Assembly: GCA_019057795.1 (NCBI GenBank)
Contig: JAHLWS010000083.1
Location: forward strand, 1 to 12,079
DNA length: 12,079 nucleotides
Origin: Promethearchaeota archaeon
Lineage (GTDB): Archaea; Asgardarchaeota; Lokiarchaeia; Sigyniarchaeales; SOKP01
Direction: 5' to 3'
A model generated the notes under the pieces. It had not been told where the DNA came from. It did not search any database and was given only the letters and a program-made list of their open reading frames with translations. The position numbers were made by a program, and so were the translations under genes. This document shows, one piece after another, positions 1 to 12,079 of this stretch (position 1 is its first letter; every line of letters begins with the position of its first letter).

Positions 1-156
1 AGTATTGGTATGAGTATTGCAATGAAGTATAAGGTTGAAAAGCTGTATTATCTTCAATTGTGGGGTCGAGAATATCAAAATCAACCATATATTAAGATTC
101 CTTTAACAAATCAGAAATTAATAAACATTATGGAGTTAACACTTAAACATGGCTAA
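1..156 (+). CDS. 3' end of a probable small CARF-like (Rossmann-fold) protein, 5'-truncated by the window edge
   Basis: Frame 1 is open from base 1 to TAA at 154-156 (SIGMSIAMKYKVEKLYYLQLWGREYQNQPYIKIPLTNQKLINIMELTLKHG*) and overlaps the next ATG by 8 nt. The small-residue helix followed by a 'KLYYL' strand resembles the segment after the D-x-T-x-G-x-K motif of CARF folds. The diagnostic motif itself lies outside the window, so the family call is inference. Confidence 0.5.
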   Translation, partial: SIGMSIAMKYKVEKLYYLQLWGREYQNQPYIKIPLTNQKLINIMELTLKHG

Positions 157-1213
157 TAGAATTTCAGAGTTTGTTTTAAAGCTAGAAGAATTACCAATAC
201 TTTTAAATGTTCTATATTTAAAAGCTAACGATTGGTTTCATATTTACCCATATATAATAGAAGAGAACACTTTCAGTGTCACTTTAGAAAAGATAGTAAA
301 AATAACTAGGCTAATAAACAAATCTAGATATCAAGAAATAATAACCGAAAAACAACTATCAGATTTTCCAAATATAGTACCAAAATTTGAAGTTTTACGA
401 GGAATCTTAATTGCCTCTGGATTCTTGAAGATGAAGAACTGGTCAACTATTCTGGAAGAATTAGAAAAAATAAAATTAATCGATCCATTGAAAGGAGAAC
501 GGCAGGCTTTCATTGGGTTGGATACTAATTGTTTCATAGATAGAATTTATTCTGTGTTAAAACATTCCTATAAAACAGATATTTCAAATTTTTATTTCGT
601 ACTATCAAGAATAATTAGAAACGAATTAATGTCAATGAGAACCATATCTAACACGCAATTAGACGATCTTAGAGAGAGATATACAAAAAATCATGAGATC
701 TTTAAAGAATTTTGGAACGGAGACAATCTTTATACGCGAACTCGTCATCTTGGTTTAGTAGAATTTAATAAATTAAGAAAACAATCTAAATGTTTAATTA
801 ATGATGGTCTAGACATAAATGAATCGAGAGAATTTGATTATCAAATAATCGAGGATTTTAGAAATCAAATATTAAAGCAAGGATATAATTTGCTCCTCTT
901 AAGTTCTGATAAGCAATTTGCTGACCAAGCACGACAATCAGGTATTAATAGCATATATCTTGAAAGACTACCGCTGGAAGATATGCCAAGGCAATTCTCT
1001 GGAACTTGGTCCATGTTATGTGATTTTCTTTATCTTAATAGCGTATATTTTGGAGCAATACATCTTGTTTGTAAAAAATATAAAATAAAAATGTTTGGAA
1101 TATGGAGAGGCAAAGGAGCAACAGAATGGGATTCTGAATCAGTAAAAATCTGGATAGGAAGTGAAAAGCTCTCAAACTTACTCGACCAACAACTAACTAT
1201 TGTAAGGACATGA
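149..1213 (+). CDS. PIN-domain ribonuclease with N- and C-terminal extensions (354 aa)
   Basis: Canonical PIN acidic tetrad: FIGLDTN (D125), RNEL (E159), EFDYQII (D230), LLSSDKQF (D254). Confidence 0.85.
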   Translation: MANRISEFVLKLEELPILLNVLYLKANDWFHIYPYIIEENTFSVTLEKIVKITRLINKSRYQEIITEKQLSDFPNIVPKFEVLRGILIASGFLKMKNWSTILEELEKIKLIDPLKGERQAFIGLDTNCFIDRIYSVLKHSYKTDISNFYFVLSRIIRNELMSMRTISNTQLDDLRERYTKNHEIFKEFWNGDNLYTRTRHLGLVEFNKLRKQSKCLINDGLDINESREFDYQIIEDFRNQILKQGYNLLLLSSDKQFADQARQSGINSIYLERLPLEDMPRQFSGTWSMLCDFLYLNSVYFGAIHLVCKKYKIKMFGIWRGKGATEWDSESVKIWIGSEKLSNLLDQQLTIVRT

Positions 1214-1269
1214 ATAAGTATTTATCGTTTGATGTTTGCCTAAATGAAGATCAATCATAATAATTTCAA

Positions 1270-1338: not shown

Positions 1339-3414
1339 TTATATTTTTTCAATGTTTTGAGCCTCTAAACCTTTCTCCCCTTTTCCAAGAACAAATTCGA
1401 CTTTATCTCCTTTATTTAACAGCTTATTACCAAAAATATTTTTGGAGTTCATGTATACATCTTTTCCTCCAATATCTGGAATGATAAATCCATAACCTGA
1501 TTTTTCGTTATAAAATTTTACTGTTCCCTTTAAAATATCTCCAATATTGGCATTTTTTCTATTTTTATTCTGATTCTGCCTGTCTTTATCGTATTTAAAC
1601 AATTTAGGATTATTTAGGTCAGTAGGTATTGATTGGTGGATAATGTGCTTAAATGGGCTTCCAGGAGATATTGCACGATTCGACATAAACCATTCGTAAT
1701 TAAGATCGCTCCCAACATTAGATGGGTATTCAACATTAGATGGTGCTTTCTCAAAATTGGTTATTTTCATGTACATCGATAGAACTTTTGGATCACATCC
1801 TAAGAGTTCGGCTGCATCTGCATTTTGAAAGGTCCTAGTCTCATCTCGAATTGTTGCCGAATCTACAATTTCGTAATTTATGGCATCATCATATAACGAT
1901 ATTTTCCTAACTTTAATATTATCTACTATAATCTTGACGCTACCGAGCCCTAGTGGTTTTCCCATCCCAATTTTATGAGCATTTTCCTCGTTATTCCCTA
2001 TCTCTAACGTCCAAATCAATTTCTTTAATTCTTCTTCTTTAACATTGTTAAAATACACCTTGAATATAAAATTATTATTTGATCGTAGAGCCCGTATCCC
2101 TACATTACGATCTGATCTTTCTAGAGTGCGGGGAATTTCGCTTATTTTATGATGCCAGTAGAATTTTCGTCCGCTAATCTCCGCCTTATATCGTCTAAAC
2201 GGGACAAGATCTTTTTTGTAAAAACCGGCGTAATCGTAATTCCATATTTGAGCCTTTATCCCATCTTCTTGACTTGGTTTTAATAAATAAAACTCTGTCG
2301 ACGATAATTTGGGTGAAGCAAGTTCCTTCAATACCTCGGCAACAAAATAATCTTCTGCACTAAACTCTTTTGTTGATATAGCTGGCGTAAATCGAACTCT
2401 TGAGGCGAGTTGGTCGTTTTTGCTTGTAAATCCAAATAAAATACATGCAGGGCATAACTGTTTAAGTGAAGAACAAGGTACGTAATCTTTAATGATGGTT
2501 GTTAAATTACTATAGAATACTTCCCTACCAATCTCAGCAAGGTTTAAATATATTTTTGAGTTATATGATTTGTAATATACTAAAGCTCCATCCAAATCGT
2601 TAATCTTGTTCGCTTTTATTCTTCTGTATCCAGTGTGTTCCTTTTTCTTAAATGCTAAATTAACCGTCTTATCATTATATAACCTAAAATTAACTAGGAG
2701 ATTCTCTACGGCCTTCTCTTCAATATCGATTTGTGGCTTATTAAGATTTTCGACGAATATAGATTCATTTGCCTTTCTATCGATATCTTCTCCGTGGTGA
2801 AAGTATCCTTTTATCTCATTATCATCAAATCCCGTAAAATATCTATCATGGTTTGCTCTAAAGCGAATTTCCTGCCCTTCTTCAAAATTTGATATCTCCC
2901 GTTTATATCTAAACTTATCCATTTTATACTTAATACAGGGTATTATCTTCCATCTACCATCTTTTGTGTGAATAACTTTTCCAGGATCTCCCGGTTTAGT
3001 TACTCGTTTATATAATTTTTTTTCGTGATCTATCGCTGATAAGCACGAATTTGTGAGCAATTCAAAAGAGCTGCGAATCATCCCTCTTAATTCACTTGAA
3101 GGAATCACGGGATTTTTAGGTGGTAATGGCTTATCATCGCTAATGTTTCGAAGATCTTCGTTCGAATAGAATTCAAGGCTATTTATTTGTTCTCCTTTGT
3201 CAGTTTTTAGATTAAATCGATTTACGTTAGATGTATTGGGTATGAATATTGGGCTTTTTGTTAAAAGAGTACATTCAATCCATCCCGTTAATAAATCTTT
3301 TTCATTCTTCAAATTTTCGAAGATGTGGTTTTTATAGCAATTTTTTTCTAAAGGAATAAAAACATAAGGATTTACGAACGTTTCTTTAGATTTGACTATT
3401 ACTTTTTTACCCAT
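1339..3414 (-). CDS. cas7: Type III-D Cas7-family RAMP with large insertion (TIGR03986-like), fused to a C-terminal cold-shock domain
   Basis: FVNPYVFIPL; LTGWIECTLLTKSPIFIP; PVIPSSELRGMIRSSFELLTNSC; zinc-type CxxxxxxCPACILFG; LASPKLS; GRKFYWH; glycine loop KIGMGKPLGLGSV. Last gene of the effector operon, with SD GGAGGTG at 3421-3427. Confidence 0.93.
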   Translation of the reverse strand: MGKKVIVKSKETFVNPYVFIPLEKNCYKNHIFENLKNEKDLLTGWIECTLLTKSPIFIPNTSNVNRFNLKTDKGEQINSLEFYSNEDLRNISDDKPLPPKNPVIPSSELRGMIRSSFELLTNSCLSAIDHEKKLYKRVTKPGDPGKVIHTKDGRWKIIPCIKYKMDKFRYKREISNFEEGQEIRFRANHDRYFTGFDDNEIKGYFHHGEDIDRKANESIFVENLNKPQIDIEEKAVENLLVNFRLYNDKTVNLAFKKKEHTGYRRIKANKINDLDGALVYYKSYNSKIYLNLAEIGREVFYSNLTTIIKDYVPCSSLKQLCPACILFGFTSKNDQLASRVRFTPAISTKEFSAEDYFVAEVLKELASPKLSSTEFYLLKPSQEDGIKAQIWNYDYAGFYKKDLVPFRRYKAEISGRKFYWHHKISEIPRTLERSDRNVGIRALRSNNNFIFKVYFNNVKEEELKKLIWTLEIGNNEENAHKIGMGKPLGLGSVKIIVDNIKVRKISLYDDAINYEIVDSATIRDETRTFQNADAAELLGCDPKVLSMYMKITNFEKAPSNVEYPSNVGSDLNYEWFMSNRAISPGSPFKHIIHQSIPTDLNNPKLFKYDKDRQNQNKNRKNANIGDILKGTVKFYNEKSGYGFIIPDIGGKDVYMNSKNIFGNKLLNKGDKVEFVLGKGEKGLEAQNIEKI
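1342..1536 (-). other. CspA-like cold-shock (OB-fold) domain at the C-terminus of the Cas7-insertion protein
   Basis: ILKGTVKFYNEKSGYGFIIPDIGGKDVYMNSKNI...LNKGDKVEF...GEKGLEAQNI matches the CspA pattern (GTVKWFN, RNP1 GYGFI, RNP2-like DVYMN, GxKVEF, KGxxAxNV). It is in frame with the RAMP through a polar linker (KDRQNQNKNRKNAN). Confidence 0.92.
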
Positions 3415-3961
3415 TTATTACACCTCCATTATTATTCAAAATTTGTACAAGACGGGCGTCGTAAAACTTAATCATACCACCCTTATCAAAATTGAAATAA
3501 TTTCGAACTTTAAATTGGATTGGTAAAGGTTCGTTGTTTATATCTCGAGGAAAACGGATTTTCATGCCTCGATGTTCTTCTATAAGTTCGTTTTTGTTCT
3601 CAATACTGACTTTCGTACCCCACATGATATGGGTTTCTTCGTAAACATTTATGTCTCCTTCTACTTCATCATCGATTCGTAACCTCCACTTGAAATCACC
3701 TCCATACTTCCATAAATGAAGCTCTCCGCTCACTGAAAACATTCTTATTTCTGTTACATAATCTAAGGTAAAATGCTCGTCTCCTAAAACATTAATTTCA
3801 TTATTCACAATTGAGCCAATATATACTTGGTTGTATTTAAAAACAATTAAAAAACAATTCCCACCGAGCTTTTCTTCACATTTTTCCAAGAGAAACTTCT
3901 TTAAATCTTTACCTTCTTCGTAATTTTCTTTTATTTCAATAGATTTAATTGTCCTTATCAT
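3407..3961 (-). CDS. csx19: Type III-D signature subunit Csx19
   Basis: 184 aa; motifs EIRMFSVSGELHLWK, WRLR, IMWGT, VRNY and terminal DARLV; positioned between cas7-cas7 and cas7-insertion as in III-D operons; SD GGGAGGAG at 3972-3979; 8-nt overlap with the next gene. Confidence 0.9.
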   Translation of the reverse strand: MIRTIKSIEIKENYEEGKDLKKFLLEKCEEKLGGNCFLIVFKYNQVYIGSIVNNEINVLGDEHFTLDYVTEIRMFSVSGELHLWKYGGDFKWRLRIDDEVEGDINVYEETHIMWGTKVSIENKNELIEEHRGMKIRFPRDINNEPLPIQFKVRNYFNFDKGGMIKFYDARLVQILNNNGGVING

Positions 3962-3980
3962 AATTTTTTAACTCCTCCCA

Positions 3981-5363
3981 CTACACTAATTCATCTGCTA
4001 ATGATTTGAAATATTTTTCAAAAATATCATTGAAATCATTGTTAATATCTTTAATATCTTTAGTATCTTTAATATCATATTCCTCTGCGTTAAGTTTAAT
4101 CTTAACGCCTTCTAAAATACCCCGCCCAATATTGGAGCCTCCTCCAACAGATTGAAGCCCATGCCACAGTTCTTTAATACCCAATAAGACTATCCCTTTC
4201 TCATATTCTTCAGCATCATTTATCCAAATATTTAATTCGATATTACCGCCAAATGTTGCTTTTTCTGTGAAAAGTGCTGTATCTACGGCTCCACCAGTAA
4301 ATCTGTCAATTTTGTTACGTGTATAATTAAGAGGTATACTTTTATCAATAACGCTTTCATTAATAAAAAGTCTTGATTTTTGGGCACGAAGATCGTAATT
4401 AGGCTCTTTTTCTCTCGTTTTCGCATATCCGAAAAGAGGCTCCATAATTTTTTTAACTTGCTCGATTTTATCGAGCTCTCGAGCAACCTGGATTATTGCA
4501 TTTCTTAATGCGCCAACCCATGAAGTGCCAGAAACAACAGGTTCACCGTTCGAACTCAAATGCGCTACATCTTCTTCTGATGGGTCCGGGTTGGGAGCTC
4601 TAATCAACAATGAATGTGGAATTTTGAATTTTACACTTATATGAGTTTTGTTTTGAATCGTTTTAAGAGAGTTTGTTAAATTATTAAGCTGAATATTTCC
4701 CTCTTTAAAAGCCTCCCAGTCAAAGTTCAGCCAATTATCCCGATCTTCTGCTTTATCCATTAAATTAAGTTTCAATATTTTTATGTCAATTAACTCTAAT
4801 TCTCCAAAACCACGAGCAGTTTTTGCCCCTATGCGAATGTTTCCATTAGTAAATCCTTCTAACACTAAGAAAAGTATATTTTCGAATTTTGAAACCATTT
4901 CATCGTTGTCTTTATCTTTATTGCCCCGAATTGTCAATTCAATTCTAAATCGACAAGAAGCTCCTGGTTCCATTATTTCATAATTATATTTTGCAGTATT
5001 TTTAGCAGTTTTCGTGAAATAGTCGATTGCAACTCCATCTCTAATGTTTACAACACATTTTTCAATATTATCTCCATCGTAAAATGTAATTAAACTTTGC
5101 CTAGATTCTTTTTCTCTTTCTCCAAAAATTTGTCGAATTAATTCGTGTTCTCGATCTTTATCTTCCTCGAGAATTGAATCAAGATAATGTCTCGTTGGTC
5201 CAGCAATACCAGAAGCGGGAATAAAAACTTTATCGTACCAATCCCTACTTATGTCTTTATCTGAATTTGATTCTTCACCACAACCAAGAACTAAGGGAGA
5301 TTTAAATATTAACTTCCCCTTCACGTAATATTTATAAATAACTACATCTTCTATATCACTCAA
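3981..5363 (-). CDS. cas7: Cas7-Cas7 (double Csm3-like RAMP) fusion
   Basis: Two RAMP repeats. First: SPLVLGCG...SDKD...FIPASGIAG...IFG...IRDGVAID...IGAKTARGFG. Second: SLLI...EEDV...VSGTSWVGALR...LFG...TRNKIDRFTGG...VGGGSNIGRG. TTG start with SD GAGGTG at 5371-5376. Confidence 0.92.
   Translation of the reverse strand: MSDIEDVVIYKYYVKGKLIFKSPLVLGCGEESNSDKDISRDWYDKVFIPASGIAGPTRHYLDSILEEDKDREHELIRQIFGEREKESRQSLITFYDGDNIEKCVVNIRDGVAIDYFTKTAKNTAKYNYEIMEPGASCRFRIELTIRGNKDKDNDEMVSKFENILFLVLEGFTNGNIRIGAKTARGFGELELIDIKILKLNLMDKAEDRDNWLNFDWEAFKEGNIQLNNLTNSLKTIQNKTHISVKFKIPHSLLIRAPNPDPSEEDVAHLSSNGEPVVSGTSWVGALRNAIIQVARELDKIEQVKKIMEPLFGYAKTREKEPNYDLRAQKSRLFINESVIDKSIPLNYTRNKIDRFTGGAVDTALFTEKATFGGNIELNIWINDAEEYEKGIVLLGIKELWHGLQSVGGGSNIGRGILEGVKIKLNAEEYDIKDTKDIKDINNDFNDIFEKYFKSLADELV
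4042..4077. repeat. In-frame 9-bp tandem repeat (4 copies of TTAATATCT) encoding DIKDTKDIKDI
   Basis: ttaatatct ttaatatct ttagtatct ttaatatca read directly from the sequence. Confidence 0.85.
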
Positions 5364-7617
5364 TCTTTCTCACCTCTCGAGTCTTGAGAATTAAATTTGT
5401 AATAAATGAACTGCAATAAATATTATAAAGTTCTGTAGTTTTTCTGGAATAATACTTAGTGATTTCAAGATCTTCAAATATCTTAGCAACTTCTGTATTT
5501 TTAAAGGAATCAAAATCGACTTGATCGTTTGAGAGTTTTTTTAATAATTTATTGAAATCTTCTTCATTTACTTTCTTGTTCTTTATATATAGCTCCTTTT
5601 CAACCTTTTTTAACTGATTTAGGGCATTATCTTTTAAGTGTTCTAATTTTTTATTAAATTCATTAATGGAATTCGATGATTTTATAAAAATAAACAACCG
5701 TTGTAGAAAAGAACCCGAAACCTTAATGCGATTATACTTAGGACTGTTAATTATATCAAATACTTTCTTGTTTATAGTGGATTTTAAAGATTCCATTAAG
5801 CAAAATTCTATAAATTCCCTAAGTAAATTAATATTTTTTAAAAGTAGGACGTCTCTACTAGTTTTTTTTTCGAGATTTACTTTTTCGATATGAGAAAACC
5901 CATGTGTATTAACAGACACTTGCCCATATCCTTCTGAAGTTCTCAAGCCAAAAGCGAATTTATCCAATTTTCCAATGTTAAATTTTTGACCATCCTTTCT
6001 TTTTAAGACAATTACTGATCCTGCTGCTAGGGCTTGCCCTTGAATCTTAGGTAACCCCCATGTTGTATTATATCCTCCAACTTTTGTGAATTTCAAATAC
6101 GAATTTTGTATATCCGTTTCGTTTATATTAATTCCAAGTGCTTTTTCGATCTCTTCTATCAGAATTTCAGGATCTGGAGTTAAATGTCCACCATCGTTTG
6201 TTAAAATCATATCAGATGTTAATGTTATAACCAACTGATCAGTACCAATGTTTTGAATTATCCTTTCATATTTTTCAACAGATTTTACTTCAAGAAGACA
6301 TTTACCATATTGAGCGGTTTTAGATTTCCCTACATATATAACCAACTCTTTAGGAAGTATCTCAATTATATTTCTTAAATCCTTGAATTTTCCAATAATT
6401 TGACCTTTGAAATCAAAGTTAGGTTCTAACACATCGTAGTGAAAATAAGCACCAGTAATATCAACTGGCTGGCCTTCACTTTTAATAGCATGTCCTATTT
6501 TACGATCTCTAGGTCTTCTATTATGACTTTCGATTTTCGTCGATGGTATAAAATTTTGCATCATAGAAGAGTTAATATTAGAAAATCCACCGAATAGCTC
6601 CGTTTGGATGCCTTTTTCTCTATCCATTACTATCTCCAAGTCAGGTTCATATGAAAGATCAAAATACCTTTCTTTTCCTTTTTCTCTTACTATAGAGAAA
6701 GGGACTGGATGAAAAATATTGCCATCTACACTCGGATAGAAATTAGTGAAGTTAACTTTACCAGAGAGAAATATGTTTCGAAATTCTGGATTAGTATGTG
6801 CATTGGTGCTTAGACTTTTCTCTTTGATATAAATTCTCGCTAGTGCTCCAAGTATATAACTACCCCTTATAAACAATTCGCTTGTTTGTTGACCGTTTAT
6901 TAAATTAGACACTAAAAGTTGTTCTTCATTCGTGAGGTTAAGGTTAATTACGCAGTCGTCTTCATCACCAAACGCTTTTAATTCCACTTTATCGCTAGAG
7001 TTATTTTGAATCTGTTGATCAATTACTTCTAAACTAATTTCACCTAATCCTCTTGTTCTTGAACTGCCGAAATTTTTAGTAATATTACAAATCTTTTTAA
7101 AATCCTCTTTAAATTTATTAAACTCATTAACTTCATCGATATCAACATCTATATTGAAATGAAATTTTAAATCTTTCCTTAAAACGCGTGAAATTCTTAA
7201 TGAATTTTCTTTTGATACAAATTTTTTCCTCATCACAGAAGTTTGTGTTCTATTATAAGAAAAATATTTTTGAACTGAGTGTTTATCATAGATTTTTGAT
7301 AATTTAGAGTATTCTTGACAAAAGTTTAGAAAATCACGAAAAATTTTGTATTTCCCCATGGTTCCATTTGAAATCCTAAAAATCGTCTTCGAAGCACCCT
7401 CAGCGCCAAAAATTTTATCAATTTCATTGTTATTTAACATTTTCCAATCTGCTAAATCTCTTGCTGAGCTTATTATAATACCTTTTATCCTTTTGGCAGG
7501 AACTTCAGGTAATCCAAATTTGTCAAATAAGACGTCTCTATCAACAATACCAGCTTCACTTTCTCCCGATCCCGGTAAAGCATCGGATAACAATTCTAAG
7601 GTTAATTTTAATTTCAT
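5356..7617 (-). CDS. csx10: Cas7-Cas5-Cas11 fusion (Csx10-like RAMP with N-terminal Cas7 and C-terminal helical small-subunit domain)
   Basis: N-terminal Cas7: LLSDALPGSG...VDRD...GLPEVPAKRIKG...IFG...FGSSRTRGLG. Central Csx10/Cas5 part: FIRGSYILGALA, FYP...PVPFS, VGKSKTAQYG, VGGYN, AAGSV, GLRTSEGYGQV. The last ~160 aa are helical and charged, and the Cas11 call for them is inferred from position. ATGA overlap with cas10; SD GGAGGAG at 7626-7632. Confidence 0.88.
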   Translation of the reverse strand: MKLKLTLELLSDALPGSGESEAGIVDRDVLFDKFGLPEVPAKRIKGIIISSARDLADWKMLNNNEIDKIFGAEGASKTIFRISNGTMGKYKIFRDFLNFCQEYSKLSKIYDKHSVQKYFSYNRTQTSVMRKKFVSKENSLRISRVLRKDLKFHFNIDVDIDEVNEFNKFKEDFKKICNITKNFGSSRTRGLGEISLEVIDQQIQNNSSDKVELKAFGDEDDCVINLNLTNEEQLLVSNLINGQQTSELFIRGSYILGALARIYIKEKSLSTNAHTNPEFRNIFLSGKVNFTNFYPSVDGNIFHPVPFSIVREKGKERYFDLSYEPDLEIVMDREKGIQTELFGGFSNINSSMMQNFIPSTKIESHNRRPRDRKIGHAIKSEGQPVDITGAYFHYDVLEPNFDFKGQIIGKFKDLRNIIEILPKELVIYVGKSKTAQYGKCLLEVKSVEKYERIIQNIGTDQLVITLTSDMILTNDGGHLTPDPEILIEEIEKALGININETDIQNSYLKFTKVGGYNTTWGLPKIQGQALAAGSVIVLKRKDGQKFNIGKLDKFAFGLRTSEGYGQVSVNTHGFSHIEKVNLEKKTSRDVLLLKNINLLREFIEFCLMESLKSTINKKVFDIINSPKYNRIKVSGSFLQRLFIFIKSSNSINEFNKKLEHLKDNALNQLKKVEKELYIKNKKVNEEDFNKLLKKLSNDQVDFDSFKNTEVAKIFEDLEITKYYSRKTTELYNIYCSSFITNLILKTREVRKIE

Positions 7618-9236
7618 TTTAATATCTCCTCCATTTGTGGTAAATAATAATCTAATAATTCTAAAGCATCAAAATACGGAGTCATATTTTCATGGAATAT
7701 TTTAACGATATTTTGAAATGGAGGAAGTTTAACTTCTCTACTATCCATTCTTAATAGGAAATGATCCACTTCTTCTTTGGAGGCAGTAAGGAGTTGCTGT
7801 AATTTCTTTATTTTAGACCTTGGCCATTTATCTGCGGCACTAATAAATCCTTGAATTAAGCTTTTGAGATTTATCCATGAATACTTATCAGGTAAATTGG
7901 AATCCCCAACAACGGCCCATGGTCGCCATAGTAAATTATTTTGTTTGTAAATCATTTCTTTAGTTTTTAATTCTTTAGGAAGAGGAATTCCCTGAATTCT
8001 ATATTGAGTTTTTCTCGTTTCACTCAAATCTGACGTAAAACCAGATTGAATGACATGAAAATCAAGCCAAAAACCTCTATTAGAAAGATTATTTTTCTCT
8101 TGAATAATTTTACCTTTTTTTTTCGCTGATTTACAGAGTTCTTCTGCCATGGTATAGGCTCTATCAAACGGAAAAGTCGTTTTTACAATCGCAACTCCTG
8201 CGCTGGCAGAATGTGGGATAATTTTACCAAGAATCTTAATTTCTAACTTAGAAAGCTTTTTTAGAAATAAAGCAGCTAAATTTATTCCTAATTTTCCATT
8301 GGTTATGAAAGTAATATCATCTCCTTTTAAGATTATTGGTCTTATAGGTAATTTTACTTTAGAATTTTCATATTTCAGGTCAAAATTCTTTTTAAATTCA
8401 TTATTTTCCAATGAATTTATTAAATTTTTAATAACTTGTTTAAGTGCTTCTTTATAAATTTCGTTAAGTCTCCTCGAAAATTCACTCATTCTGTAGAGCG
8501 ACAATTCGTAATCTTTAATGGACTCATTTAACAATTCATGTATCGTTTTACCTACATTATCTCCATCAATATGAACGATAGAAATATAATTCTCTCCAGT
8601 TTTTTGCCCTAAATCCTCCAATCTCAAAGGAAATTCGTAATTGTGAAAACCTTTTAATAAATCTTTAAAATGATTTTTATCATTATTATCTCTTTTTCTT
8701 TTTGTAGGTAGCGAAAGATATTCGTCATTTTCTTTAAATTGAACGGGTAAACCACTGCTCAATTCAGCTTTTGTTATTCCAATTCCTAATAGGGGGGTTG
8801 TCTTGACGAAGGAATTCTTTTTCTTTACAAGTTTTTTAAATATGTTGTTATAATCCAGACTAAAGTTATTCAAAAAAGTTTTTTCATAGGCTACGTTAAA
8901 GCTAAGTAGCCCCCCAGAGAGTTCTAAAACTTTTTCTGACAATTTTTTAGTTATTTCTTTTGCTTTATCTTTGTCTTTAAAAACAATTAAGGCATTTCCG
9001 CCCCCCAAATATACGATTACCGCTTCATGCTCGGCCCAATTTATTCCTTCTCTTTTAATTGCTTCTAAAGTATTAGTACACTCTAATTTGATATATTTCT
9101 TTAACAAATCTTCAGAAGCATTTTCAACGATTATCGAGCCTCCTAAATTTTCTTTTAACCGGTTTGTCGAAAAAATAAAGTTTTGAATTCCGGTTATATC
9201 ATATATTGCAAGTGTTTTTTCCTCACTCATGATCAT
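7614..9236 (-). CDS. cas10: Cas10 large subunit, type III-D, lacking the HD nuclease domain; Palm2 motif KGDD
   Basis: Begins directly with AIYDITGIQNFIF...LKENLGGS; Palm1 VYLGGGNA; Palm2 IVHIDGDNVG and RPIILKGDDITF; SAGVAIV...PFDRAYTMAEELCKSAK; WLDFH. Only 540 aa. The real start may be the second ATG (9230). Confidence 0.95.
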   Translation of the reverse strand: MIMSEEKTLAIYDITGIQNFIFSTNRLKENLGGSIIVENASEDLLKKYIKLECTNTLEAIKREGINWAEHEAVIVYLGGGNALIVFKDKDKAKEITKKLSEKVLELSGGLLSFNVAYEKTFLNNFSLDYNNIFKKLVKKKNSFVKTTPLLGIGITKAELSSGLPVQFKENDEYLSLPTKRKRDNNDKNHFKDLLKGFHNYEFPLRLEDLGQKTGENYISIVHIDGDNVGKTIHELLNESIKDYELSLYRMSEFSRRLNEIYKEALKQVIKNLINSLENNEFKKNFDLKYENSKVKLPIRPIILKGDDITFITNGKLGINLAALFLKKLSKLEIKILGKIIPHSASAGVAIVKTTFPFDRAYTMAEELCKSAKKKGKIIQEKNNLSNRGFWLDFHVIQSGFTSDLSETRKTQYRIQGIPLPKELKTKEMIYKQNNLLWRPWAVVGDSNLPDKYSWINLKSLIQGFISAADKWPRSKIKKLQQLLTASKEEVDHFLLRMDSREVKLPPFQNIVKIFHENMTPYFDALELLDYYLPQMEEILK

Positions 9237-9647: not shown

Positions 9648-10475
9648 TTATGCAACAGAAAGTATAAAATTATGACCAAATCCTCTGGTAGTACGAGAAC
9701 CTATTCCAGTATATTCTGATAAATAAAGAATTTTCCACATAATTGATTTTTCAAGAGGATTCCCACCGATCTTAAAAGTAATATTACCAATTCTACCTTT
9801 ATATGATATTACTTCGCTTTTGTTTTCTTTATTAGTGAGATAGCCTGTGGATTCACGAGTATAATCTTGAACTATTATTAAATAGGGATATAACTGAGTA
9901 GGTTCCAGGTTTACGATCCCTAACTGTTTAAATTTCTCACATTGGAAGTTTAGGAAGGCTTCAATTGTAAAATTTTCCAATCTTTTTTCTTGAGCGTAAT
10001 AGAAAAAAGTTGGAGTTTCCAATCTCACTGTAACTGTATTGAGGGGATCAGGAATTTCATTTAAATTGCCTTCATGAATATTGAGTCTTTCAATAATTAC
10101 ATTTAGTGCATCAATTTTAAAAAGTTTATTTTGTACAGTGTAACTTTTTATTAATCTTCCAATTTCAGGGTCGATTGTTTTTATAAAAAAGTGCCCTCTT
10201 TCTCCCTTTTTAACTTTAACAAATCCTTTTATTTCAGATTTGGGCTGTTTTCTCTCGAAAGTAAGGTAAGAATACGTCCATGGTCTCACAGTTGTAGATA
10301 GATGAATTTTTCGAGAAAATTGGGGGTCCATTTCAAAAAGTAGATTATAGATGGCACCGTAAATTTTTGAATGATTTCTTAATGGAATTTGAGCGTCTTT
10401 CTTAGCAACAACTGAAAATTTACATTTGAGAAGCGTAATATTTCTTCTCATCTTTATTCTATTATTATCTTGCAT
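9648..10475 (-). CDS. cas6: CRISPR-associated endoribonuclease Cas6
   Basis: IYGAIYNLL...FSRKIH...RPWTYS; LETPTFF; YKGRIG; C-terminal glycine-rich loop YTGIGSRTTRGFG. The start could be the internal Met (MRRNITLL). Confidence 0.93.
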   Translation of the reverse strand: MQDNNRIKMRRNITLLKCKFSVVAKKDAQIPLRNHSKIYGAIYNLLFEMDPQFSRKIHLSTTVRPWTYSYLTFERKQPKSEIKGFVKVKKGERGHFFIKTIDPEIGRLIKSYTVQNKLFKIDALNVIIERLNIHEGNLNEIPDPLNTVTVRLETPTFFYYAQEKRLENFTIEAFLNFQCEKFKQLGIVNLEPTQLYPYLIIVQDYTRESTGYLTNKENKSEVISYKGRIGNITFKIGGNPLEKSIMWKILYLSEYTGIGSRTTRGFGHNFILSVA

Positions 10476-10557: not shown

Positions 10558-10596
10558 CTATTATCTATTATCTATTATTTATTATCTATTATCTAT
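10558..10596. repeat. 7-bp tandem repeat (CTATTAT, about 5.5 copies)
   Basis: ctattat ctattat ctattat ttattat ctattat ctat; it includes the TAG stop of the CARF gene (10593-10595). Confidence 0.9.
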
Positions 10597-11270
10597 ATTA
10601 CTGTGTGATTCAAATCTAAACCTTTATCTTCAAATATTTTATTTGTTATCCTAAGAGGGTTTTGAATTGTTTTATAAACTTCCGTTCCTGGCACTGGCCG
10701 TCTTAATTCTCTATCAAATTTCTCATGATCTATATATAAAATATCTGGACCATCAGGCCCTAAAGCAAGTGCGGCTATACCACATGCTACACTCATAATC
10801 TTTGTCCCTCCAGTTATATCCAAACCAATTTTACTAATATCTATTCTCTTTTCTTTATTTAAATATAATAGACCTAATCCTATAAGGTCTATGGAATTTT
10901 TAAATGAATTTTTTTTCATAATTTCACGCTTACATTGAATAAATTTTAGTCCAGTTTCATCAATAATTTTATTCAAAGTTACCTCAGATTCTTTAGTATA
11001 AATAAAAAATACGCCCGTTGGATTATTTACTAAGATATTTAAAATTATAGGTTCATGTGAAAACCCTACTGTAAAAATTAATCCATCATACTTTTTAAAA
11101 GAATTTTTTGACCTGGCACTCAATACAAATTTCTTTTTGCTTAGATTCCATATCTCGTCCATAAGAGAATCTGTATCCTCATTCTGTTTCTTTAATCTTT
11201 TTAGTTCAATATATTTATTCTCGAGTTTTGAGTTTAAATCTTTAATAACTTCTTTATTCTCTATTGTCAT
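10593..11270 (-). CDS. Stand-alone CARF-domain protein (TIGR02710-like CARF without effector domain); possible ring nuclease, sensor, or truncated effector
   Basis: GLIFTVGFSHEPIILNI, FFIYTKES, LDITGGTKIMSVA, YID...RRPVPGTE...NP. About 55 aa of helical N-terminal extension; the protein ends about 20 aa after the CARF fold. Confidence 0.85.
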   Translation of the reverse strand: MTIENKEVIKDLNSKLENKYIELKRLKKQNEDTDSLMDEIWNLSKKKFVLSARSKNSFKKYDGLIFTVGFSHEPIILNILVNNPTGVFFIYTKESEVTLNKIIDETGLKFIQCKREIMKKNSFKNSIDLIGLGLLYLNKEKRIDISKIGLDITGGTKIMSVACGIAALALGPDGPDILYIDHEKFDRELRRPVPGTEVYKTIQNPLRITNKIFEDKGLDLNHTVI

Positions 11271-11310: not shown

Positions 11311-11507
11311 CATATTATGCGTGAAAATTTTTAAATAATTTATGAGTGTTTAAATTTTTAACTTATAAAACTACTTCATAATTAATTAATTTATATTTAT
11401 TTACAGAAATTTTACTAACTAAGTAAAAAATTAACTACTAACTTGTTCGTTAAAACCTAACAAATAAAGAATAGGAATATTGTTAAAAATTAAATTTGAT
11501 TTTTGAT

Positions 11508-12077
11508 TTAAATCCAGATTATTTTTCTCCCACTGAAATAACAACGCCTAAGGTTATATTCTGTGCTTAGATTTAAGAGAGCGATAGAAACCGGTTTTGT
11601 ACCACCTGTTATCTCACATACAATTTCGTAATTTTTGATCTCTTCTTTTAAAATCTTTTCTAACTCTTCATAAATTTGCTGATAATTTTCTCTTAGAACT
11701 TTTTGATAATCGAATTCTCTCACAACAGTTTCAATTTCTTCGTATTTGCTTTTATCTAATTTTCTAAACTCCTCGTGGTAATCTGGGCTTGTAAATAACA
11801 CGTATTTTCTCGGGAGGATACTAATCTCTTCAAAAGCTGCGAGAATGTCATTGAACAGCGTAGGAATTCCTAACCCACCAATAAGGCAAATTGGAACAGT
11901 TTTTTTATAATAGTTCCTTAATGGCTGTCTTGCGACTCCGTTTAACATATAAGACCCTCTATCCGTTTTTTCTAGCATACCATCTTTTACTAATCTTTTA
12001 AGATGATGATCCGCGCGTTTTGACATGTTTTTATTAATAAGATAACTACTAATTTCATTGAATTCGTAAATTTCTTT
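11508..12077 (-). CDS. Winged-HTH plus C-terminal CARF protein, putative ligand-responsive transcription regulator; probably 5'-truncated by the window edge
   Basis: The frame stays open upstream of the ORF-track Met at 12026 to the window end (KEIYEFNEISSYLINKN-MSK). HHLKRLVKDGMLEKTDRGSYML is a typical wHTH recognition helix and wing. CLIGGLG, YVLFTS and CEITGGTKPVSIAL are CARF motifs. Confidence 0.8.
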   Translation of the reverse strand, partial: KEIYEFNEISSYLINKNMSKRADHHLKRLVKDGMLEKTDRGSYMLNGVARQPLRNYYKKTVPICLIGGLGIPTLFNDILAAFEEISILPRKYVLFTSPDYHEEFRKLDKSKYEEIETVVREFDYQKVLRENYQQIYEELEKILKEEIKNYEIVCEITGGTKPVSIALLNLSTEYNLRRCYFSGRKIIWI

Positions 12078-12079
12078 GC

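Follow-up and report, generated by a model that had tools for sequence, protein, structure and literature searches.

A predicted two-subunit form of the archaeal CARF+PIN effectors encoded beside a type III-D CRISPR operon in an Asgard archaeon

Background

Type III CRISPR effectors usually fuse a CARF domain to a nuclease, as in Csm6/Csx1 (HEPN), Can1/Can2 and Cami1 (RelE). The left end of contig JAHLWS010000083.1 from a Promethearchaeota archaeon (assembly GCA_019057795.1) raises the question of whether sensor and nuclease might here be the products of two overlapping genes. The whole contig (12,079 bp, 30% GC; G000:C83 in our collection) was analysed and is referred to as the window. A first-pass annotation, made from the DNA letters alone, had noticed the end of an open reading frame (ORF) at 1-156 that overlaps by 8 nt a gene with an intact PIN catalytic tetrad, and had seen that the two converge on a type III-D operon. 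From the 51 residues available it had proposed a CARF-like sensor and a PIN nuclease acting as separate, coupled polypeptides tied to type III signalling, or else a toxin-antitoxin pair. We find the ORF layout and the convergence as described, with the operon on the opposite strand from 1339, and the computational tests named in that annotation all support the two-polypeptide proposal. We consider it probable that the pair makes up a single CRISPR ancillary effector of two subunits, a heteromeric PIN RNase that senses cyclic oligoadenylate and represents a split form of the archaeal CARF+PIN effectors. This reading is built on the tiling of a fused homolog by the two gene products, the conservation of the gene pair, the occurrence of natural fusions, linkage to cas genes, and the conservation of catalytic and ligand-loop residues; a predicted complex is added to these. 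The features of the pair are as follows.

1..156, + strand: 3' end of the stand-alone CARF gene, a 5'-open frame of 51 codons followed by the stop TAA at 154-156
61..111, + strand: predicted C-terminal docking segment of the CARF protein (W135, E138, P143 and I145-N151; contains P148), from the complex model
149..156, + strand: gene overlap of 8 nt, holding the ATG of the PIN-module gene and the CARF gene's final codon and stop
149..1213, + strand: PIN-module gene, ATG at 149, 354 aa in three domains
149..463, + strand: N-terminal alpha/beta domain, aa 1-105, from the structure model
185-220, + strand: main predicted CARF docking helix, aa 13-24, including the near-invariant N20, from the complex model
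464..991, + strand: PIN nuclease domain, aa about 106-281, from fold matches and conservation of the tetrad
521-523, 623-625, 836-838 and 908-910, + strand: catalytic codons D125, E159, D230 and D254 respectively, from conservation
992..1210, + strand: C-terminal domain, aa 282-354, with a conserved G317-x-W319-x-x-K322...W327 motif, from alignments and the model
1187-1210, + strand: last helix, aa 347-354, which touches the CARF subunit in the complex model, as does W287

A predicted stand-alone CARF protein upstream

The window starts at a contig end, so the upstream gene is cut and its 5' two thirds lie outside the contig. Contig C29 of the same genome begins at the exact same base as C83 and the first 141 nt of the two are identical, suggesting that both end at an assembly branch point. 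The upstream sequence could be recovered in part: the gene's own 5' portion remains unassembled, being absent from every contig of this genome bin in k-mer and tblastn searches, but a near-identical complete copy is present on the metagenomic contig L029, where a PIN gene 93% identical to that of the window follows a complete ORF of 165 aa and, as in the window, overlaps it by 8 nt. Aligned with residues 115-165 of the L029 protein, the 51 residues encoded in the window agree at 49 positions (96%), and the analyses of CARF fold and ligand loops given here were made on that protein (L029:1961-2455), of which the window holds the last 51 residues.

The structure model of the 165-aa L029 protein (predicted local distance difference test score, pLDDT, 93.1) adopts a CARF fold. 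It is matched by CARF domains overall at Z 13-16, and its best fold match is the CARF domain of SiRe_0806 from Sulfolobus islandicus, with Cad1, Can2, Card1, Sis0811, Sis0455 and Crn1 at Z 14-16. A profile of 21 CARF-partner proteins (the A2 family) recovered, among solved structures, Sis0455 (E 3.7e-8), Sso2081/Crn1 (E 3.3e-7) and SiRe_0806 (9jxw; E 1.5e-5), and it matches the 51-residue fragment of the window at E 1e-17. Pfam models give a concordant picture, with CARF_Card1 detected in 15, Cas_NE0113 in 12 and Cas_APE2256 in 6 of the 21 members; the L029 protein itself scores 23.6 bits with Cas_NE0113 (cut-off 23). Profile and model evidence together identify the upstream gene as a stand-alone CARF gene encoding about 165 aa, which bears out the identity guessed from its last 51 residues.

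Two ligand loops are kept in the relatives of the window protein, namely the strand 1-helix 1 loop GWS11 and the loop D105-M-T-P-G-R-K111, in which T107, P108, G109, R110 and K111 are each present in at least 90% of the CARF alignment. Their equivalents include Ser11 of Crn1 and Lys106 of Sis0455, key residues of those enzymes (PMC10018336). Ser11 is found in L029 and most orthologs, and is replaced by Gln in three close orthologs that are still paired (L016, L034 and L005); the loop lysine is conserved. By analogy with SiRe_0806, crystallised with cyclic tetra-adenylate (cA4), we infer that the CARF subunit may bind cyclic oligoadenylate as a dimer.

A three-domain PIN protein downstream

In the AlphaFold model of the 354-aa protein (pLDDT 91.9) an acidic tetrad occupies the canonical positions that follow strands 1 to 4 in an alpha/beta/alpha PIN fold, and fold comparison of residues about 105-293 gives matches to PIN domains at Z 7-10.7. 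The best matches are 3i8o (Z 10.7), an archaeal Hjm-like PIN domain (Z 9.2) and SMG6 and Nmd4 (Z 7.7 each), with VapC at Z 5-6. By its fold and its four acidic residues the protein is assigned to the PIN domain nuclease superfamily. D125, E159, D230 and D254 are invariant in all 21 PIN-module homologs; of 124 cluster representatives (50% identity or less), 124, 122, 119 and 123 respectively carry them. This pattern supports retention of the tetrad by selection, as would be expected for an active site. By sequence alone the family is barely visible to Pfam: PIN_4 scores the window protein at E 0.072 (13.8 bits, below the cut-off of 21.9) and matches five of the 21 homologs, the best at E 6.5e-6. 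A sub-cut-off match of the N-terminal domain to AimR (E 0.0014) was seen in one of 21 homologs and was rejected as noise.

The two gene products tile a fused archaeal protein

Fold comparison connects both products to the same solved protein. SiRe_0806, deposited as a 'PIN domain-containing protein', is available as an apo structure (PDB 9jxw) and in an entry titled as a complex with cA4 (9jxx). The CARF model aligns to residues 1-138 of its chain (Z 16.4, root-mean-square deviation 2.2 Å, 138 residues aligned, 23% identity), and the model of PIN-module residues 1-354 aligns to residues 148-414 (Z 16.9, 3.5 Å, 250 residues aligned; Foldseek E 1.5e-6). The latter match covers not only the PIN domain but also the extra domains of about 105 aa at the N-terminus and about 70 aa at the C-terminus. 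As both halves are matched, the two gene products tile fused SiRe_0806, with the break at about residue 140. Searches of solved structures with the PIN-module profile and with the fused homolog P0126 gave no sequence match, SiRe_0806 surfacing by fold comparison only.

Conservation of the pair, its junction and its fusions

In all retrieved loci with at least 500 nt of upstream sequence, about 20 distinct loci, the PIN-module gene has an A2-family CARF ORF as its immediate 5' neighbour in the same orientation. Profile searches of the retrieved loci showed that this adjacency persists where the PIN module is as little as 23% identical, and on this sequence evidence the pairing is obligate and ancient. 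The hosts are Asgard archaea (Promethearchaeia, Helarchaeota) and other archaeal metagenome-assembled genomes (MAGs).

The overlap in the window implies possible translational coupling of the two genes. Across a dozen divergent loci the junction measures 8, 17, 4, 1, 0 or -3 nt, the 8-nt form being found also in L029, L013, L010 and L022. Because the split recurs with varied overlaps in these dozen loci, the overlap in the window is no assembly artefact; an origin of the split by frameshift or as a pseudogene was likewise ruled out by its repetition in divergent loci with different junction geometries. The pair is separated from the convergent gene at 1339..3414 by a spacer of 125 nt. No intrinsic-terminator-like site was detected in 1-1500 or in the rest of the window, and a promoter scan used bacterial models, which are uninformative for an archaeal host.

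An exhaustive search of representative sequences returned 165 PIN-module relatives at E 0.001 or better. The best 150 of these 165 comprise 108 full-length stand-alone PIN modules, 11 fusions and about 30 fragments, so that the two-gene form appears to be the majority form of the PIN-module family in metagenomic data. The 11 fusions carry an N-terminal A2-type CARF domain, some with a winged helix-turn-helix (wHTH) domain in between, and their domain order is the gene order of the pair. On a FastTree phylogeny of 124 sequences the fused forms are scattered, requiring at least 8 parsimony changes; the tree was midpoint-rooted and its branch supports were unexamined, so this scatter is indicative only. 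The existence of natural CARF-PIN fusions further backs the reading of the two polypeptides as sensor and nuclease.

A predicted heteromer

The heterocomplex was modelled 1:1 from the A2 (CARF) and A1 (PIN-module) alignments. It reached an interface score (ipSAE) of 0.83 in three runs, as against 0.00 for the best of three controls; 58 of 80 solved complexes attain this mark, as do 2 of 110 mismatched pairs. Agreement of contacts between the runs is 100%, with pLDDT of at least 85 for the partners. The model supports binding between the CARF protein and the PIN module, and a complex of the two is predicted.

On the CARF side the modelled contacts fall in the segment 135-151 and in helices at 20-24 and 58-65, and on the PIN side residues 13-24, 46-48, 142-143, W287 and 347-354. 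This interface leaves the catalytic tetrad uncovered. Two positions within it are strongly conserved, P148 of the CARF protein being invariant in 21 sequences, and N20 of the PIN module being kept in 106 of the 112 representatives without a gap there; 11 of 12 fused forms have this N20 as well.

Genomic context and the source of the signal

The remainder of the window contains the following features.

1339..9236, - strand: complete type III-D effector operon, the presumed source of a nucleotide signal
1339-3414, - strand: TIGR03986 RAMP with a C-terminal cold-shock domain, from domain matches
3407-3961, - strand: Csx19
3981-5363, - strand: double Cas7 (Csx7-like)
5356-7617, - strand: Csx10-type fusion
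7614-9236, - strand: HD-less Cas10, 540 aa
8316-8327, - strand: Palm2 motif of Cas10, KGDD in place of GGDD
9648-10475, - strand: cas6
10593-11270, - strand: CARF-only gene, an additional signalling component of the locus, as is the next gene
11508-12077, - strand: wHTH-CARF gene, cut by the contig end

Related pairs, close and distant alike, are mostly found beside cas genes of differing type. The pair adjoins type III-D genes in the window and L010, and type III modules with a GGDD/HD Cas10 of about 850 aa in C29, L013, L016, L018 and L041/L042; in L041/L042 it lies inside the operon, between the RAMP genes and cas1-cas2. III-B genes neighbour the L040 pair and the fused gene of L048, L011 has cas1/cas4 and further CARF genes, and L027, L030 and L031 have cas6. 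L035 and L045, which are short or uninformative contigs, are exceptions to this linkage. Among 161 genomes of the same class, the PIN module was detected in 11, the Cas10 palm2 domain in 21 and both in 6. Cas10 palm2 accompanies the module in 6 of its 11 genomes, against 15 of the 150 genomes that lack the module. At genome level the pair is enriched with Cas10, in the co-occurrence check that the first-pass annotation had asked for; the comparison is descriptive only, as related genomes are non-independent and MAGs incomplete.

Cyclic oligoadenylate is the best guess for the signal, since the same pair also flanks loci with a canonical GGDD Cas10, including C29. A comparison of C83 and C29 provides a view of the pair in two settings. 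The two contigs have common flanks (window 1-1239 and 11505-12079, corresponding to C29:1-1239 and 13540-14114), in which the CARF/PIN pair is 93% identical in nucleotides and the wHTH-CARF gene 96%. Our tests extend to the C29 copy of the pair, which at the protein level is 88% identical. Between these flanks C83 has the III-D genes with the 540-aa KGDD Cas10, and C29 a multi-RAMP module with an 854-aa GGDD Cas10. The difference represents either a strain-level cassette swap inside the MAG (contamination 7.5%) or two paralogous loci.

No CRISPR array is present within the window. Contig C3 abuts its right end (124-nt overlap at 99%) and carries an array of at least 14 repeat copies (G000:C3:4740-5875), about 1-2 kb past the window's right edge; hence the locus is not array-less. 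Contig C19 is almost entirely array. The cold-shock domain of the TIGR03986 RAMP (CSD, E 3.6e-14) occurs also in a marine-sediment relative (L010:1849-4029, 726 aa), indicating that the RAMP-CSD fusion is a conserved feature rather than a one-off.

Two further loci show the pair in other surroundings. In L020:3213-12017 (Candidatus Helarchaeota Hel_GB_A) the next gene is a Csx1-like CARF-HEPN gene, after which comes a type I-D-like module with a Cas3 helicase, an HD large subunit, Csc2 and Cas6; no type III genes were found within 10 kb, and no Cas10 palm2 domain was detected in this 82%-complete genome. In a paralogous branch, represented by contig C77 of the genome studied here and by G008, the CARF protein has an added wHTH domain. 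The corresponding module (C77:35650-44700, equivalent to L043:8652-17699, and also G008:C24, L044) contains two CARF-wHTH genes and a PIN module that shares 27% identity with the window ORF, together with genes for an Upf1-like SF1 helicase (AAA_11/AAA_12, 863 aa), a 372-aa unknown protein, a PLD nuclease and an RNase III-like protein, and its neighbours are a DUF1156 methylase, DUF499 and a helicase/NOV_C gene. In its fold the PIN domain is similar to SMG6 and Nmd4, eukaryotic partners of Upf1, and the pairing of a PIN module with an Upf1-like protein in an Asgard archaeon is curious.

Proposed function and alternatives

The following scheme would unite these observations. The CARF and PIN-module genes would be co-translated via the 8-nt overlap, and the C-terminal strand/loop of the CARF protein (IKIPLTN) would dock in a groove between the first and last helices of the PIN module, giving a stable heteromer. 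This is probably 2:2, as CARF domains bind cyclic oligoadenylate as dimers. When the type III complex senses foreign RNA, Cas10 would make cyclic oligoadenylate, with cA4 as the best guess, as suggested by SiRe_0806. Binding of the ligand to the CARF dimer would cause a change that crosses the non-covalent interface and switches on the PIN active site (D125/E159/D230/D254), and the active PIN domain would then degrade RNA and arrest the infected cell. The identity of the ligand, RNA as the substrate and activation rather than inhibition are the parts of this scheme that we infer.

Several points count against this scheme. CARF+PIN proteins have been catalogued but are biochemically almost untouched, and no activity has been established for the family. 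In the sole reported test, the fused CARF-PIN protein ST0035 showed weak cross-linking to cA4 and no induced RNase activity (PMC6546367), and we found no publication on the function of SiRe_0806 in the literature searched. The signal made by the adjacent complex is uncertain, since its Cas10 is HD-less with a KGDD motif and a III-D2 system is known to make S-adenosylmethionine-AMP (SAM-AMP) rather than cyclic oligoadenylate (PMC13294483). Five of the 11 genomes with the module, some of them incomplete MAGs, have no detected Cas10, and the C77/G008 paralog sits in a methylase/DUF499/helicase defence island without cas genes. The ligand loops of the window protein are those of its 96%-identical relative, as its own gene is truncated. 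Finally, the complex was modelled as 1:1 and not 2:2, and its score may reproduce the domain packing of the fused homolog.

These observations have to be weighed against other functions for the pair. The upstream protein could mainly be a Crn1-type ring nuclease that degrades cA4, with the PIN module as a separate accessory nuclease, or with the heteromer limiting itself by destroying its activator. Such a role would agree with Sis0455 and Sso2081/Crn1 being the closest characterised sequence relatives, with the Crn1-like size and stand-alone architecture, with the presence of Ser11 and the GRK-loop lysine in the L029 copy, and with the view that many members of the CARF7/Crn1 family are ring nucleases. 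However, the pairing is kept in L016, L034 and L005 although Ser11 is Gln there, and the alignment of the A2 profile to Crn1 ends at about residue 120, leaving the C-terminal part as the predicted docking segment. Moreover, a pure off-switch would leave the obligate adjacency, the repeated fusions to PIN and the confident complex model unexplained. We therefore regard it as unlikely that this is the main role of the CARF protein; ring-nuclease activity is compatible with the two-subunit effector as an added activity, and as such an add-on it is possible.

The small upstream gene overlapping a PIN gene is also the layout of classical VapBC-type toxin-antitoxin modules (type II); on that reading a labile antitoxin would block the PIN toxin without a nucleotide signal and the proximity to cas genes would reflect co-location in defence islands. 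VapBC-like modules are known in type III-D2 loci, and both the paralogous pair in a non-CRISPR defence island and the module genomes lacking a detected Cas10 would be accommodated. Against this, the partner adopts a complete CARF fold, keeps its ligand loops and lacks a DNA-binding domain of the antitoxin type, the PIN protein is 354 aa long with two domains beyond the nuclease, compared with about 130-150 aa for VapC, and the predicted interface lies off the catalytic tetrad. Repeated covalent fusion of antitoxin to toxin is not expected of a labile-antitoxin mechanism, and the fused homolog SiRe_0806 was crystallised with cA4. In light of the partner fold, the recurrent fusions and an interface away from the active site, we hold the toxin-antitoxin half of the first-pass proposal to be very unlikely. 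Least credible, in our estimate, is that the PIN module serves as an enzyme of RNA processing or regulation, for instance in crRNA (CRISPR RNA) or mRNA turnover, with the CARF-like protein as a structural partner that has lost ligand binding and with no role in abortive infection. PIN-like NYN nucleases with such roles occur in type III loci, ST0035 lacks cA4-induced RNase activity, and the best PIN fold matches include those of the RNA-surveillance proteins SMG6, Nmd4 and Rrp44; but the ligand-loop residues of the CARF protein are near-invariant, and the patchy spread of the module (11 of 161 genomes in the class) fits defence rather than housekeeping.

If the pair is indeed a two-subunit effector, the separation of sensor and nuclease might itself be functional: the ligand could release or re-dock the PIN module, in a form of signal-triggered antitoxin release, or the CARF subunit could be swapped between effectors. 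We regard this extension as doubtful, though worth stating for its consequences. To our knowledge, all characterised CARF-type type III ancillary nucleases (Csm6/Csx1, Can1/2, Card1 and Cami1) have sensor and nuclease in one chain. Were the split functional, this would be the first case of a type III ancillary nuclease controlled through a protein-protein interface that can dissociate, and the split form, with 108 stand-alone against 11 fused sequences, would be the dominant natural state from which fusions arose repeatedly.

What is added here to the catalogued CARF+PIN proteins is the two-gene form, common in metagenomes, its strict pairing with a CARF gene, a predicted and defined heteromer, and apparently repeated fusion. 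The system appears suited to asking how a CARF domain relays its ligand signal to a catalytic domain, as the interface is separable, mutable and titratable. The known range of type III signalling modules is likewise extended to Asgard archaea; there, one and the same pair borders type III cassettes of different kinds.

Comparison with known systems

SiRe_0806 is the nearest counterpart of the pair, being archaeal, crystallised with cA4 and equivalent in structure to both halves; it differs in being one polypeptide rather than the product of two overlapping genes, and identity to it is 17-23%. CARF+PIN proteins were noted earlier by Makarova (2014) and by Shah et al. (2018; ST0035, Msed_1167, cluster 104), and Supplementary Table 2 of Makarova et al. 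(2025; PMC12669027) lists Crf10/Crf11 (CARF_m3) as archaea-specific CARF+PIN sensor-effectors whose PIN domain is a predicted RNase. Compared by description, Crf10/Crf11, ST0035 and Msed_1167 share with the window pair a CARF sensor, a predicted PIN RNase, restriction to archaea and presence in type III cassettes; they are described in these sources as fusions, and the descriptions make no mention of a two-gene form. The window does not encode CARF and PIN in one polypeptide, given the stop at 154-156, the new start at 149 and the maintenance of the split in about 20 loci. As it consists of two ORFs, the window pair is a variant rather than a member of the fused CARF+PIN effectors.

Crn1 (Sso2081) and Sis0455 resemble the upstream protein as stand-alone CARF proteins of similar size with equivalents of Ser11 and the GRK-loop lysine, and are its closest characterised relatives in sequence. 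Crn1 acts alone, whereas the CARF protein of the window type has a C-terminal docking segment, predicted from the model, and an obligate PIN-module neighbour, and its Ser11 is not universal. VapBC modules share the order of a small partner gene overlapping a downstream PIN nuclease gene, yet pair the nuclease with a DNA-binding antitoxin instead of a CARF protein, and the PIN protein of the window has three domains in 354 aa. Further, the C-terminus of the VapBC antitoxin occludes the PIN active site, whereas the contacts modelled here avoid residues 125, 159, 230 and 254. In Cami1 (CARF-RelE), Csm6/Csx1 (CARF-HEPN) and Can1/Can2/Card1 (CARF-nuclease) a CARF domain senses the product of Cas10 and switches on a toxin-type nuclease, as we propose for the window pair; in all of these the sensor is fused to the nuclease, and the nuclease folds are other than PIN.

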